Shown: positions 4,070-25,295 of the stretch, in pieces | Layout of the letters: every line of letters begins with the position of its first letter | Position numbering within the stretch: position 1 is the stretch's first letter | IMG/VR virus record: IMGVR_UViG_2703718823_000009 | Strand: one strand, 5' to 3' | Origin: a virus | Taxonomy: Duplodnaviria > Heunggongvirae > Uroviricota > Caudoviricetes | Length of the DNA stretch: 43,443 nucleotides | The notes under the pieces: generated by a model | The model's database searches: none | Told to the model about the DNA's origin: nothing | Seen by the model: the letters and a program-made list of their open reading frames with translations, nothing else | Made by a program: the position numbers and the translations under genes

Positions 4070-4813
4070 TTAACCTGCTGCGCTGACAGTCACCGCAGTC
4101 ACAGCCACAAAATTCCCGTCAGCGGTCATGCCCACAATGCTGACACTGCCCTGCTTCACGCCTTTTACCGTGGCCACAAGTCCGTTCAGGGTAACCGTGG
4201 CAGTCTGTGGATCTGACGAATGCACACTGATCGCTTTGTCACTGGCTCCGTCAGGTTTTACTGTAAAGGTCAGCGTGGTGGTTGCTCCCACTTTTACACT
4301 GGCAGACGCCGGTGATACTGTCAGCCCGGTAACGCTCACGGTTTCAGTGCCTTCCTCTGCCAGATACGGACGCCCCACACCGCTGATTTTCACAGTGCGG
4401 GTCATCACGTCTTTTGAGGCAATGGTTTTACCCAGTGAGCTCAGCCAGCCACGGAAAACATCAACAGTGCCGTTGGGATATTTGATACGAAACGCGCAGA
4501 CTTCACCGGAGTCGAACAACTGAACCAGTTTTTTCTGCCCGCTGTCACCCGGACGCCAGGCCAGCGTCGCCGAAGTATCACCAACGGATTTCTGCCCCTG
4601 GGTTGTCGTTTTCCAGTCTGCATCTTCATCATCGAGATAAGTGTCATCTTCTGCATCAGCGGTCATTTCGCCAGGTTGCAGATCCTTCACCATCGCAAGA
4701 CGCAGCCAGTCAGTGTCCGACAAAGGGTTCGCAAACGCATCGCCGTTGCCGGTATACATCCAGAACGTCGTCCCCGCACCTTTCGTCTTTGCCAGTGGAT
4801 TTGGTGTGGTCAT
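4070..4813 (-). CDS. major tail protein V-like with C-terminal Ig-like domain
   Basis: MTTPNPLAKTKGAGTTFWMY...NGTVDVFRGW aligns by eye with recalled lambda gpV; AAGGAGG RBS before ATG at 4813. Confidence 0.85.
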   Translation of the reverse strand: MTTPNPLAKTKGAGTTFWMYTGNGDAFANPLSDTDWLRLAMVKDLQPGEMTADAEDDTYLDDEDADWKTTTQGQKSVGDTSATLAWRPGDSGQKKLVQLFDSGEVCAFRIKYPNGTVDVFRGWLSSLGKTIASKDVMTRTVKISGVGRPYLAEEGTETVSVTGLTVSPASASVKVGATTTLTFTVKPDGASDKAISVHSSDPQTATVTLNGLVATVKGVKQGSVSIVGMTADGNFVAVTAVTVSAAG

Positions 4814-20834: not shown

Positions 20835-21113
20835 TTACCTCCAGATCCGTTGCTGGAAAGTGCGGGACGCACGTGGTGGGCGTTCGGAGTAAGGCAATCT
20901 GACTGAGATTATCCAGTGACGGTAGTCGAGGCTAAGGGCTTTCTTAACCTCGTATCCGCGCCTGCGGTAACACTGAATTATCCATTCAGCCTGCTCTTCA
21001 GTGCATGGAGGGTGTTGGAACCATTCAGACTTGAATGCGTGAGAATACCGCTCGTGCGTGCAGACAAGAACGGGCGAATTATCAGAATTGTAATATTTTA
21101 CGTTGCGTGCCAT
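20835..21113 (-). CDS. hypothetical prophage protein (92 aa)
   Basis: ATG with GGAG RBS; stop abuts the DUF968 start. Confidence 0.45.
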   Translation of the reverse strand: MARNVKYYNSDNSPVLVCTHERYSHAFKSEWFQHPPCTEEQAEWIIQCYRRRGYEVKKALSLDYRHWIISVRLPYSERPPRASRTFQQRIWR

Positions 21114-21179
21114 CGGTTTTCTCCGGTGGCACGGTGTTACTCAGCGGGAGTTCAGCCCCGCGCAAGATTGTAGATGAGT

Positions 21180-21431
21180 TTATTCTTCTGCAAAAGCTGA
21201 AAAGCCTGCTTTTATTCCGATCTCTTTCAGTGCCTGTAATGAAGTGACAAACTCACCTTCGCGCAAGATAAATCCGTCCGTGACCCGAGCATCCACAAAA
21301 TTAATTAACGCAGCCCCATTCTTTCGCAAACACAGAATGCGGTAATGACTAACAATGTTTCCATTTTCAACGCACACAGCATAGAGGCCATCTTCACAAA
21401 AAATTTTACGCAGTTCTTCGATGTTCATCAT
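21180..21431 (-). CDS. hypothetical prophage protein (83 aa)
   Basis: ATGATG start with GGAAGGA RBS. Confidence 0.45.
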   Translation of the reverse strand: MMNIEELRKIFCEDGLYAVCVENGNIVSHYRILCLRKNGAALINFVDARVTDGFILREGEFVTSLQALKEIGIKAGFSAFAEE

Positions 21432-21550
21432 CAGAATCCTTCCGGATAATTAGCTCTCCCCTTTAAGGGACCATCCCTCTTATCCCTGCGCGCTACTTAA
21501 GTATTTTTGATTCTATTCCGGCACCGTCCAGAACTTCAAACGCGTTGAAA

Positions 21551-21579
21551 ATAAAAACAAAAACCCGCCGAAGCGGGTT
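21551..21579 (-). terminator. intrinsic terminator downstream of hok
   Basis: AACCCGC-CGAA-GCGGGTT hairpin followed on the minus strand by TTTGTTTTTAT. Confidence 0.55.
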
Positions 21580-21647
21580 AAGTGCGGGTGCGTTGAGGAT
21601 GCCTGCCACATCAGAGGTGGCGAGGGATTTCTCCCTCGCCGGGTCTC

Positions 21648-21803
21648 TTACTCCTCAGGTTCGTAAGCTGTGAAGACAGCGACCTCCGTCTGGCCGGTTC
21701 GGATTCGTACCTCGCAGAGGTCTTTCCTCGTTACCAGTGCCGTCACTATGACGGTTAAACAGATGACGATCAGGGCGATTAACATCGCCTTTTGCTGCTT
21801 CAT
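21648..21803 (-). CDS. hokD: Hok-family type I toxin (HokD-like)
   Basis: MKQQKAMLIALIVICLTVIVTALVTRKDLCEVRIRTGQTEVAVFTAYEPEE; AAGGAGA RBS; upstream in-frame extension corresponds to the mok region; sok antisense RNA expected on the plus strand near 21800-21900 but not delineated. Confidence 0.9.
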   Translation of the reverse strand: MKQQKAMLIALIVICLTVIVTALVTRKDLCEVRIRTGQTEVAVFTAYEPEE

Positions 21804-22415
21804 AGCCTGCTTCTCCTTGCCTTTCGGCACGTAAGAGGCTAACCTACATGTGTCTAGCATGAAATTGGCCTCAGATTAATGTTAAGCGTCTTGCAGGACG
21901 CGTAATGTTAACTGGGGCTTTTCTCTATCTGCCGTTGGTGTTCATGCCCGAGGCAGATAGCCTCAAGCACCCGCAGCCATTCTACTTAACTACCGTTACC
22001 TCGCCAATATGAAATCAATCAGAAAGGTGATCCATAAGAACAATAACAAGACAATAAATTGCCATTACAGCCACAATAGCCAGCGTGCATTTGAGAACCA
22101 GCACATAAATCTCCTGCTCTTGACGTATACAGGCACTGATAAATATGTGTCTTCGTGCTCGTTACTTCAATACGTAAGCGTCAGTTGCGCGTAATCAAAT
22201 CAGACAACCGACTTTAAACCAGGGACAAACAGCAGGTAAAATAATCAAACGTTATTTTAAGCCATATCATGGCTGCAAGATTTCCTCTAATTTCAACAAG
22301 ATGAGCAGGTCATTGCTTGCACTGATGACCTGCTCATTAATCATGATTATTTGAAAATTAAGGTAGGCGTACTATATATAGAAACACTGCTACGCTCCGT
22401 TGGCATAATATAAAA

Positions 22416-23081
22416 TCATTCCTGTCCTTCCTTACCGTAGTGCAGTTGACCAATTTTGATTAGAGGGCGTCCCTGAGATTTGCGGTGTAGATTGGTATCG
22501 CGCAGTGAATACACGCAGCCACAATATTCCTGCTGATAGAATTGTTCGCGCTTGCTGATTTCAATCATGCGGGAAGAGCCGCCCTGTTTTCGCCAGTTAT
22601 AATCCCAGTACACCATGCCCGGATAATGCGCGACGGCTCGCCGTCCACAGTCGTTAACCTGCTGCATATTTTTCCAGCGTGAAATGCCCAGTGAGCTACT
22701 GATCACACTGAAACCATTTTCAGCGGCATACAGTGCAGTCCGCTCAAAACGCATGTCAAAACACATGGTACAACGGATCCCTCGTTCAGGCTCCCATTCC
22801 ATTCCTTTGGCTCGCTCAAACCAGTTGTCTGTGTCGTAATCAGCATCAATAAATGGCACGCCGTGTTGTTTAGCAAAGCGAATATTCTCATCCTTACGAA
22901 TTAAATACTCTTTCTGAGGATGAATGTTCGGGTTGTAGAAAAAGATGGTGTAGTCGATTCCCGAGGCCTGAAGCGCCTCCATCACTTCACCGGAACATGG
23001 AGCACAGCAAGAGTGCAGTAATAGTTTTTTTGCCCCGTTTGGGAGCTCCAATTTGGGGCGTTTGAAATCAGCAACAGTCAT
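22416..23081 (-). CDS. QueH-like (DUF208) epoxyqueuosine reductase homolog
   Basis: Contains [13 protein letters not shown], matching the CCAPC motif of DUF208/QueH as recalled; start uncertain (ATG at 23081 or 23102), none with a strong RBS. Confidence 0.55.
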
Positions 23082-23134
23082 AAATGTGTTTATGAGGTTC
23101 ATGAAAATAGCAAAAAGTGTAGCATCAGAACGGG

Positions 23135-23437
23135 CTATCGGAAACAGATGTCTAAATCTGGTAATGTCTGCTTTTGATGCAAAGCAGACAACCACGGCAG
23201 CGCACGAAAATCAGCGATAATGTCGGGATTAATAATCGGGTGACGTCCATCACATAGCGAATGTTCCTCTTTCCTGATATCGCTAAATATCGACCATTCG
23301 TCATTCTTATCGAACCAGAGCATGCGACTGCCACAGCACATGTCGAGAATGGTAGCCGATGTACTCACAGCATCACCTCCCGATAATTCCCCTGATAAAA
23401 CGTCAGAACACGCTGCATAACTTCGCTCTTCCGGCAC
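23135..23437 (-). CDS. ORF of uncertain status (possible gene fragment)
   Basis: 100-aa frame with no RBS at any candidate start; overlaps the 3' end of the upstream 140-aa gene. Confidence 0.2.
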
Positions 23438-23787
23438 TCGCGACAGATTATGTTTAGACGACTGTCGTAGCGGCGTATTTCTCCGTCAGGTAATGACCAG
23501 ATAAGGTCCGGATCAACCACAGCAGGTTTCTTCACCTTTGCCCTCGAGAGTTTTTTGCGGGCGTTTTGCCAGTCCTTACGCGCCTGTTCAGACGGGAATA
23601 ACCCGTAGCCGGAGTTGTATACATCGCCACTGGCTACCAGCTCTCTGGCAAGAACGCTCATCAGATATCTAGTCGCACCTGTTTTAGCTTCCAGTTGCCG
23701 TAACGTCTCACGACCGCTCTGGCGCACGAGTTCCACCACCTGCCCTTTAATTTTTTCCCGCTCTTCTTGTGTAAAAACTTTTGCCAC
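23365..23787 (-). CDS. hypothetical protein (140 aa, GTG start)
   Basis: GTG at 23787 preceded by AAGGGGGA RBS; basic C-terminus with CRECRK. Confidence 0.45.
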   Translation of the reverse strand: MAKVFTQEEREKIKGQVVELVRQSGRETLRQLEAKTGATRYLMSVLARELVASGDVYNSGYGLFPSEQARKDWQNARKKLSRAKVKKPAVVDPDLIWSLPDGEIRRYDSRLNIICRECRKSEVMQRVLTFYQGNYREVML

Positions 23788-23827
23788 AAGTCCCCCTTAA
23801 AATTACCTCATGACCTGAAATCAACAC

Positions 23828-24793
23828 TTATCCTCTGAAACCAGGCGGAATTTCTGTATCCGGTTCAGAAATATGATTAACACAACGCTGTACAGGTGAA
23901 CGTCCCAGGCGGATGACCAGTTCGTCCCATTTTTCGCGGAGCTTTGACGGGCTCATGATGTTTTTTACCCAGAATGGATCTCGCTGAACCCGACCAAACA
24001 TTTCGCAAATTTGTCTGTGGCTTCTGCCATCCAGCATCCGCATTGTGCGCACGTCATTGGCCCAGACAGTCCAGTTAGGCTCTTTTGGTCTCATGATCTC
24101 GCCATCATCACTGGCTGCCTGTTCGTAGAGGCCCACGATCCGCCCCCAGATCCACTGCGCACACGCCAAATCCTCCCTGCTACCCCACTGGCGTTTTTTC
24201 GCACTAAACACAACCGCGTCGGAGTTCCGGGTTAAAAAATCCTGTTCAGTCGTCTGCGGGTCCGGTTGCGAAGCTTCCGGACGAAAAGTGTTTTTATTCT
24301 CTGTAGTAATCTCTGTTGTATTCTCTGTAAGATCATCAGGCCATTTTGACCCGATGACATTGGATCGTTTTGAACCAATGGAGCGTTTCATTTTGACCTC
24401 TTCCATCGTGTCATTTTGACCTGATGGAGCGGCGCATTTTGAACCGATGGATTCGCTCAATTTGCCATCATCTAAAAGCTCGCTCCCGTAGTTGATCGTG
24501 TAGAAATTGGTCATATCGCGCTTTGATTTATTGAGCTTTTCACAACGCAAAAGCCCCAGCGTTTTCAGACTTGCAAACGCGCGCTTTAACGTTGACTCTG
24601 ACCAGAATGGGAACTGTTCCAGCCATTGTTCCGTTGTGTTGTAAATCCAGCGAACACCATCACATTCCATACCGGAATTGGTATCTCTCAACCAGTAATG
24701 CAACTGCTGCAACACAATGGCTTCATTTAAGCCAATCTTCATCGCAAGCTGTGTGTTTATAACCAGTGGGCGTTCAGCAAAAAGAAGGCTCAT
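23828..24793 (-). CDS. phage replication initiation / replisome organiser protein
   Basis: N-terminal region ...LLFAERPLVINTQLAMKIGLNEAIVLQQLHYWL... resembles recalled replisome-organiser N-domains; occupies the O position downstream of cro. Confidence 0.6.
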   Translation of the reverse strand: MSLLFAERPLVINTQLAMKIGLNEAIVLQQLHYWLRDTNSGMECDGVRWIYNTTEQWLEQFPFWSESTLKRAFASLKTLGLLRCEKLNKSKRDMTNFYTINYGSELLDDGKLSESIGSKCAAPSGQNDTMEEVKMKRSIGSKRSNVIGSKWPDDLTENTTEITTENKNTFRPEASQPDPQTTEQDFLTRNSDAVVFSAKKRQWGSREDLACAQWIWGRIVGLYEQAASDDGEIMRPKEPNWTVWANDVRTMRMLDGRSHRQICEMFGRVQRDPFWVKNIMSPSKLREKWDELVIRLGRSPVQRCVNHISEPDTEIPPGFRG

Positions 24794-25295
24794 AATTCCA
24801 TCCAGCTTTTTGTTGGTATTGCTGTCGATACGCAAGTTTGAAAGCAATTGCTTTTTCTATAAGTTCGTCAGTTTCACGATCCACTACGGCAGGATCAGCA
24901 AAAAGCAGTCCGGACTCCACCACATCGCCATATTCTTTGTTTAACCCGGCGATCATGTACGTGATGCTTTTTCCGTCACTAATTTCACGATACAACCTGA
25001 AATCATTAATCCGGATAGCCTCCATAATTGCAGGCACTAGCGCCGTGAACTTTTCACGCTTATCCCTGGTGTCGATAGCCTTCCAGCGTTCGAATATCTT
25101 CACTCGATTAACGCCAAGCGCTCGCTGATCAACCGCGCCACCTTCATCTGTGACACGCTGAACATCGATGTTCGGGCGCTCTTTCAAAGCCCAGAATGCT
25201 TCAGTGATTAATATCGTCGCCTGCTCCTGTGTCATTCCTGGTCGACATATCCAGGCATCCAGAGCCTCACGAGCCTGTTCAGGAGTGATTTTCAT
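24774..25295 (-). CDS. hypothetical regulator in cII position (possibly YdaT-like)
   Basis: 173-aa ORF immediately downstream of dicC-like cro; family uncertain. Confidence 0.4.
   Translation of the reverse strand: MKITPEQAREALDAWICRPGMTQEQATILITEAFWALKERPNIDVQRVTDEGGAVDQRALGVNRVKIFERWKAIDTRDKREKFTALVPAIMEAIRINDFRLYREISDGKSITYMIAGLNKEYGDVVESGLLFADPAVVDRETDELIEKAIAFKLAYRQQYQQKAGWNYEPSFC

Follow-up and report, generated by a model that had tools for sequence, protein, structure and literature searches.

Why should a temperate phage of Escherichia coli carry queH, a gene for a cobalamin-independent epoxyqueuosine reductase, when its host already possesses QueG for the same predicted reaction? 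This question is raised by a minus-strand gene in IMG/VR virus record IMGVR_UViG_2703718823_000009, a stretch of 43,443 nucleotides (nt) which is referred to as the window and represents a Qin-like lambdoid prophage integrated beside rspAB/ynfA. QueH is a [4Fe-4S]/iron enzyme that yields queuosine (Q) by reduction of epoxyqueuosine (oQ) at position 34 of tRNA-Asp, tRNA-Asn, tRNA-His and tRNA-Tyr without cobalamin (B12). E. coli is unable to synthesize corrinoids de novo and relies on their import, and tgt and queA belong to its core genes. The cobalamin independence of the QueH reaction was reportedly established by Zallot et al. 2017 (ACS Chem Biol) and Li et al. 2021 (Biochemistry), the former of whom are also said to have validated QueH genetically in Acinetobacter baylyi and by complementing an E. 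coli delta-queG mutant. Taken as a whole, it is judged likely that the window encodes a functional QueH on a foreign mobile cassette, serving by lysogenic conversion as a B12-independent backup of QueG.

With hardly any room for doubt, the open reading frame (ORF) codes for an intact enzyme of the QueH family. The initial annotation had pointed to a QueH-like ORF ending at position 22416, and this gene is real, with the cited hallmark motif of the family present; the mechanically called frame (GTG at 23195, 259 amino acids (aa)) proved too long, as the homologues and the RefSeq entry all start at the ATG at 23081. RefSeq lists the product as WP_001595803.1, 'epoxyqueuosine reductase QueH'. The assignment to DUF208/QueH, including the Cys ligands, is consistently borne out by a Pfam profile, a match in the PDB, the alignment of Cys residues and a structure comparison. 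The PF02677 QueH profile is recovered at 2.7e-65 with 220 bits (gathering score 23.5) over profile positions 1-174 of 175, and the only sequence matches in the PDB are to QueH of Thermotoga maritima (7lc5 at 5e-22). An AlphaFold2 (AF2) model of the protein (predicted local distance difference test score (pLDDT) 81, predicted template modelling score (pTM) 0.82) superimposes on 7lc5 with a template modelling (TM) score of 0.82 and a root mean square deviation (rmsd) of 2.9 A. The best five Foldseek hits in the PDB are likewise T. maritima QueH entries (TM score by target 0.79-0.83, rmsd 2.8-3.4 A), followed by the PP-loop proteins TtuA and LarE with E-values about 1e7-fold weaker.

All seven Cys residues conserved in the family are kept, namely C25, C26 and C29 of the CCxPC motif, C104 and C107 of the CxxC motif, and C187 and C189 of the CxC motif; as judged from 75 representatives of diverse clusters of the QueH family, each of these positions is occupied by Cys in 80-99% of the sequences. 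The individual Cys residues are presumably ligands of the metal centre, following assignments in the literature. With about 12 further positions that are conserved in at least 90% of the 75 representatives retained as well, among them N50, N52, E58, Y59, R62, W87, E99, R103, R111 and K137, no strongly conserved position of the family is lost. The prophage protein shares with known QueH (DUF208, PF02677, COG1636; T. maritima structures PDB 7LC5, 7LC7, 9D86, 9DCO, 9DEU) the fold, the CCxPC/CxxC/CxC set and a full-length profile match, and it shows no divergent clade-specific features relative to housekeeping QueH. It is an orthodox, intact and selectively maintained member of the family.

The gene is far from rare in E. 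coli. Among 5426 complete genomes of the species, queH is found in 995 (18%), nearly always on the chromosome, and queG in all 5426 and thus alongside every queH; the two genes coexist, for example, in strain REL606. The enzymes belong to unrelated families, one core and the other accessory. Carriers of queH include REL606, E. coli C, ATCC 8739 and O157:H7, O104:H4 and ST131 strains. Both E. coli alleles, named QueH by NCBI and UniRef, fall into one cluster at 90% identity, whose 2308 members come from Escherichia, Shigella, Enterobacter and Klebsiella, and the corresponding PHROGs entry, phrog_3217, is labelled 'unknown function'. The initial annotation had called a prophage-borne QueH unexpected in a species that normally uses QueG; QueG is indeed the core enzyme, but the rarity was overstated, because 18% of the complete genomes contain queH and both RefSeq and UniRef list the protein under this name. 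It had also considered that the gene might turn out to be a common annotated prophage gene of another function; common and annotated it is, but with the same function. A full-text literature search for work on prophage or E. coli QueH returned none.

The gene is also mobile. Escherichia phage HannyBb (45 kb, in a record titled 'complete genome') encodes a QueH protein that is 100% identical, annotated only as 'hypothetical', and its DNA is 99.8% identical to positions 21500-24000 of the window. Copies with 90-97% aa identity occur on plasmids of Klebsiella, E. coli, Salmonella and Enterobacter, and a QueH homologue is encoded in 302 plasmid records, including 99 from Klebsiella and 67 from Escherichia. 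On conjugative or mobilisable IncF plasmids of Klebsiella and Salmonella, the queH cassette is found among IS3, IS481 and ISNCY elements, with fragments of TonB, TolA and fecC/fecE iron-transport genes and a TIR-domain gene as neighbours. A plasmid leading-region or anti-restriction context was considered for these copies and rejected, as the surroundings consist of insertion sequences and fec/TonB/TolA fragments. Within prophages, the cassette follows the DUF977 gene in otherwise unrelated replication modules of ST131 and O157 strains, and the slot is polymorphic, with queH present in the window and in the ST131 and O157 prophages, absent in strain E92 and deleted in BL21.

This last deletion spans 1361 bp, equivalent to positions 22130-23490 of the window, and removes queH, the methyltransferase stub upstream of it and the 3' end of the DUF977 gene, all of which are kept in REL606, E. 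coli C and ATCC 8739. The deletion junction was found in 32 genomes, all of them BL21-family laboratory strains (BL21, BL21(DE3), C41, C43, BLR, T7 Express, NEB Express, Rosetta and others), and lies around 4229-4230 in the BL21 Star(DE3) locus.

A view on the closest relatives indicates that queH is foreign to E. coli and probably originates from the housekeeping queH of another Enterobacterales lineage. The nearest non-mobile relatives, with 80-87% aa identity, are chromosomal QueH proteins of Erwinia, Providencia, Gibbsiella, Photorhabdus, Ewingella and Proteus, encoded in housekeeping neighbourhoods such as that between purL and glrK in Erwinia or next to tmcA in Providencia. Whereas chromosomal queH is a housekeeping locus in these and other organisms, it is borne by prophages and plasmids here, in a species with QueG as core enzyme. 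As indicated by the substitution patterns, the mobile gene is under strong purifying selection: the alleles of the window and of the ST131/O157 prophages differ by 36 synonymous and 7 nonsynonymous substitutions (synonymous divergence (dS) 0.32, ratio of nonsynonymous to synonymous divergence (dN/dS) 0.04), the window and plasmid alleles compare at dN/dS values of 0.03-0.05, and the range over all prophage and plasmid alleles is 0.03-0.06 at synonymous divergences of 0.3-1.5.

The unit that moves is about 0.8 kb in size. Homology to the ST131 and O157 prophages extends from 23196 to 22410 and homology to the plasmids from 23144 or 23176 to 22378 or 22387, as determined by blastn, and the leader of about 105 nt in front of the gene is conserved across all contexts compared. 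This leader contains a candidate extended -10 element, TGCTACACT, which is unchanged across the four mobile contexts and the chromosomal locus of Erwinia, where the nonamer is located 31 nt before the queH ATG; a TAnAnT hexamer is present 33-40 nt upstream of the ATG in eight of ten queH lineages. A promoter thus probably travels with queH, a proposal made from comparative conservation alone. The 5' edge of the cassette coincides with a hairpin and with the end of the methyltransferase homology at 23202. The hairpin is not followed by a U-tract and is partly conserved (GTCTG..CAGAC) in the plasmid copies.

These features suggest the following course of events. A cassette of about 0.8 kb, composed of leader, probable own promoter and gene, would have recombined into a slot for accessory genes flanked by the replication module and the antiterminator gene Q, and in the window it appears to have taken the place of the 3' part of a phage DNA methyltransferase gene, since the methyltransferase homology ends where the cassette starts. 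The position between the replication genes on one side and the Q antiterminator on the other is equivalent to the nin region of phage lambda, as the initial annotation had already proposed. The presence or absence of queH at a fixed slot of related prophages, together with its foreign ancestry, supports the reading of the gene as a moron. Comparable insertions are known from lambda (nin) and from the relBE-hokD segment of Qin in E. coli K-12, where likewise one foreign gene, preceded by a leader of its own, sits between conserved modules, and other cargo in the queH slot of related prophages includes hok/sok, an NgoMIV-type restriction-modification (R-M) system and methyltransferases. Unlike the toxin, exclusion or virulence genes carried by other morons, queH encodes a tRNA-modification enzyme, and its promoter and terminator are putative.

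In a lysogen, the cassette would supply a B12-independent route from oQ-tRNA to Q-tRNA, by which Q-tRNA would remain fully matured when B12 is scarce or the uptake of B12 has been lost. This backup is regarded as the most likely role because QueG requires a corrinoid and E. coli lacks the ability to synthesize one de novo, and a B12-independent route should be useful because the species depends on imported corrinoids. As the function for which queH has been selected it is favoured, if with more reserve than the presence of the enzyme itself. It also agrees with the tRNA- or queuosine-related moron suggested by the initial annotation, which is the best reading of a QueH family member in the prophage of a QueG-containing species. 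QueG (E. coli yjeS) has been described as a cobalamin- and [4Fe-4S]-containing enzyme (PMC5175355, PMC4646009) and counts among the four enzymes of E. coli that depend on a cobamide (PMC11841063), and the title of Frey et al. 1988, cited in PMC5175355, names the reduction of oQ as cobamide-dependent in E. coli and Salmonella. The pair QueH/QueG would parallel MetE/MetH of E. coli, in which a B12-independent isozyme backs up a B12-dependent one. Note that MetE is encoded on the chromosome under regulation by B12 status, whereas the queH leader contains no cobalamin riboswitch or other Rfam element: an Rfam scan by E-value over positions 21000-24500 yielded no cobalamin or preQ1 riboswitch and only sok and sub-threshold noise.

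Several observations speak against an active enzyme expressed from its own promoter for the benefit of the lysogen. Generic scans of the minus strand near queH for two-hexamer sigma-70 promoters and for terminators gave nothing, and the ATG of queH is not preceded by a Shine-Dalgarno sequence. The gene is co-oriented with the early-right operon and follows directly downstream of it, so that it could be expressed mainly on induction and not in the lysogen. Its loss from the BL21-family strains is connected with no known phenotype. The residue aligned to Asp13 of T. maritima QueH, which is mutated in PDB 9dco, is a Cys (position 29) in the prophage protein; a Cys at this position is the norm in the family and occurs in 64 of 68 representatives. 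Finally, a deletion of queG had no growth effect under one condition tested (PMC11841063, figure), which leaves the fitness value of the step from oQ to Q unproven.

The same gene order is the starting point of the best-surviving alternative, which we nevertheless consider unlikely, namely that QueH serves the phage. The gene would then be transcribed together with the early-right operon after induction and raise the level of Q-tRNA during lytic growth, either tuning the translation of phage genes or manipulating a host response that depends on the conversion of oQ to Q. Such a role is possible because queH lies co-oriented and immediately behind cro, ydaT, O and the DUF977 gene, from which it is separated only by the hairpin lacking a U-tract, and it would be in keeping with the presence of queH in the deposited genome of phage HannyBb and with the up-regulation of queG and the shift from oQ towards Q that accompany phage infection in Shewanella (bioRxiv 10.64898/2026.03.05.709803). 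However, the codon usage gives no corresponding signal, the share of NAU among NAY codons being 0.55 in the early genes of the prophage, 0.65 in the late genes and 0.62 in flanking host genes. Moreover, the plasmid copies are equally constrained although plasmids have no lytic cycle, queH has been kept in REL606 even though the Qin-type prophage there is a decayed remnant, and the leader with its promoter-like element moves together with the gene.

A backup of QueG may also be superfluous, in which case queH would be a neutral passenger, duplicating the activity of QueG and hitch-hiking on mobile DNA without any benefit. The universal presence of queG, the lack of queH in 82% of the E. coli genomes and its loss in the BL21 lineage without noted consequence all fit this view, which is still less likely than a role in the phage cycle: the low dN/dS values, maintained over the synonymous divergences given above, contradict it, as do the fully intact catalytic-site residues and the repeated capture of the cassette by different prophage backbones and plasmids, and a neutral queH would be expected to decay like the methyltransferase remnant next to it.

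Very improbable is a substrate other than tRNA-bound oQ, such as an epoxy-7-deazaguanine in phage DNA or a salvaged free nucleoside or base, although 7-deazaguanine modifications of phage DNA do exist (PMC6884629) and T. maritima QueH crystallizes with free GMP and queuosine (PDB 7lc7, 9deu). Phage systems of this kind consist of DpdA and preQ0/G+ genes, whereas no DpdA/Tgt-like transglycosylase and no QueA, QueC, QueD, QueE or FolE is named among the 61 annotated features of a near-identical record spanning the window, as read from RefSeq product names and not from a profile scan of each ORF. Hutinet et al. found no genes of the oQ or Q pathway in DNA-modifying phages (PMC6884629), and the prophage protein is 80-87% identical to housekeeping QueH without clade-specific divergence. 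The proposal of another 7-deazaguanine substrate, also made in the initial annotation, is therefore not supported. Searches for a defence or anti-defence function with PADLOC gave no match for QueH or DUF977, only the methyltransferase remnant matching methyltransferase models, and NCBIfam returned no match for any of the proteins searched.

Two frames lie upstream of queH (Table 1). The first, described before as a 140-aa gene with a GTG start and a strong ribosome-binding site (RBS), stands as such: AAGGGGGA precedes the GTG, and RefSeq gives a 'DUF977 family protein' (WP_001151183.1) with the same coordinates. Its Pfam DUF977 match (4.7e-29) covers profile positions 1-133 of 134, and the gene is therefore complete; it also matches phrog_142 at 7e-47, an entry labelled 'Ren-like exclusion protein' in PHROGs. 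The second had been recorded as a frame of 100 aa that overlaps the first and has no RBS. An open frame at 23135-23437 overlapping the DUF977 gene does exist, but the lack of an RBS resulted from the choice of the wrong start (GTG at 23437); as judged from the homologous gene, the real start is the GTG at 23368, located 7 nt after GGAGG.

RefSeq treats this second gene (23183-23368) as a pseudogene, 'methyltransferase, missing C-terminus', and its open frame continues to 23135 by way of cassette sequence. The remnant matches the DNA methyltransferases of phrog_11564 at 2.6e-28 and those of phrog_954 only over profile positions 50-106 of 229, and is recognized by the MTase_II/oMTase models of PADLOC. 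In an alignment with the 118-aa homologue of strain E92, colinearity extends through IIADFRAL and breaks off just before LDPPH, with the nucleotide homology to E92 stopping at the cassette junction already mentioned. The remnant retains a motif-I-like ILDMCCGS and lacks the catalytic DPPH motif, and is therefore presumed to be inactive.

A single gene, broken into the 140-aa and 100-aa frames by a frameshift or a sequencing error, as their common orientation and overlap might suggest, has practically no chance of being the correct reading, since DUF977 alone fills its profile, the second frame belongs to the unrelated DNA methyltransferase family and possesses both a GGAGG RBS of its own and a stop-start overlap (GTGA), homologues with a longer methyltransferase show the same two-gene layout, and the DUF977-methyltransferase arrangement recurs in hundreds of independently sequenced genomes, in many of them with 99-100% identity. 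This idea from the initial annotation is rejected on the basis of the profile matches and the homologous two-gene loci, and resequencing is unnecessary for two unrelated genes.

Table 1. Features of the queH region and its surroundings, given in positions of the window.
Feature	Position	Strand	Description	Basis
queH coding sequence	22416..23081	-	ATG start, 221 aa, stop included; cobalamin-independent epoxyqueuosine reductase	Pfam PF02677, PDB, AF2 model, Cys set, RefSeq, dN/dS
Mobile queH cassette	22378..23196	-	Leader, gene and about 40 bp of 3' flank	Pairwise blastn boundaries, alignments
Candidate extended -10 promoter element TGCTACACT	23116..23124	-	34 nt upstream of the queH ATG (at -43)	Inferred from comparative conservation
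Hairpin GTCTGCTTT-gcatca-AAAGCAGAC	23166..23189	-	Cassette's 5' edge, where it joins the methyltransferase remnant	Fold, -19.2 kcal/mol, z = -4.3
Hairpin with 13-bp stem, possible weak terminator	22303..22335	-	80 nt beyond the queH stop; a poor U-tract (CUUGUUG) follows	Fold; missed by the terminator scan
Class I S-adenosylmethionine-dependent DNA methyltransferase remnant	23183..23368	-	GTG start, GGAGG RBS, GTGA overlap with the DUF977 stop	RefSeq, PHROG, PADLOC, alignment
DUF977 gene	23365..23787	-	140 aa, GTG start, RBS AAGGGGGA; last gene of the replication module	Pfam, phrog_142, RefSeq
hok/sok type I toxin-antitoxin locus	21648-21972	-	Directly downstream of the queH region; hokD coding sequence at 21648-21803	

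The gene order on the minus strand of the window is cro, a gene for a YdaT-domain protein, an O-like replication initiator gene, the DUF977 gene, the methyltransferase stub, queH, hokD/sok, rem, ydfU, the antiterminator gene Q, and finally the genes for lysis and morphogenesis. The first 38.7 kb of the window differ from E. coli S19-651 (NZ_CP075852.1) by only 5 substitutions. Phage records of the mEp460-like and PhiR47_1-like types match the late (morphogenesis) half, within positions 1-25000, at 96-99% identity, and phage HannyBb matches the immunity/replication/queH region at 99.8%; that the late half matches other phages than the queH region is typical lambdoid mosaicism. The gene in the cII position after cro (24774-25295, minus strand) contains a YdaT_toxin domain (Pfam, 1.2e-05), and the HannyBb record disagrees with this name in calling the counterpart a 'CII-like transcriptional activator'.

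Downstream of queH, a segment of 372 bp (22038-22409) separates the gene from hok/sok. It contains the possible weak terminator and no convincing gene, and is absent from the queH prophages of ST131 and O157 as well as from the plasmid copies. In the hok/sok locus, a longer, mok-like frame of hokD extending to 21860 matches Pfam HOK_GEF at 3e-23, and the Rfam match to sok at 21798-21972 reaches 115 bits. A further Rfam match between hokD and rem (21558-21639, minus strand), to the Salmonella prophage small RNA isrK, is probably noise, with 25.7 bits against a gathering score of 50 and an E-value of 0.01, although its position in the prophage is intergenic. In an O157:H7 prophage (Z1811), the slot after queH holds genes for an NgoMIV-family restriction endonuclease and a DNA cytosine methyltransferase, which replace hokD. 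The slot should be regarded as a hot spot for cargo because of this R-M pair in O157:H7 and the methyltransferase stub in the window.

The identity of queH is not new as such, since RefSeq and UniRef already call the exact protein QueH in about 1000 complete E. coli genomes. What has not been found discussed in the searchable literature is that about one in five E. coli genomes contains a mobile and strongly conserved B12-independent isozyme beside the universal B12-dependent QueG, and this spread is an unstudied, if modest, biological point. Because REL606 and other B and C strains contain queH and the BL21 family has deleted it, the Q/oQ status of tRNA in B12-free media may differ between laboratory strains, and REL606 and BL21 offer a ready pair for testing the backup hypothesis. 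A wider extension, tentative and rather doubtful, would be that temperate phages and plasmids of the Enterobacteriaceae spread QueH as an auxiliary 'epitranscriptome' gene that uncouples the conversion of oQ to Q, the final and regulated step of queuosine synthesis, from the supply of B12. Hutinet et al. 2019 reported no homologues of QueA, QueG or QueH in the viruses they analysed (PMC6884629), and QueH would then be the first enzyme from the tRNA-specific section of the Q pathway that is encoded by a phage and for which a phenotype has been demonstrated. If true, the spread of queH would matter under corrinoid limitation or after loss of BtuB under pressure from phages or colicins, and it could alter traits that depend on translation and for which a link to Q levels has recently emerged, among them biofilm formation, mutagenesis and phage resistance.

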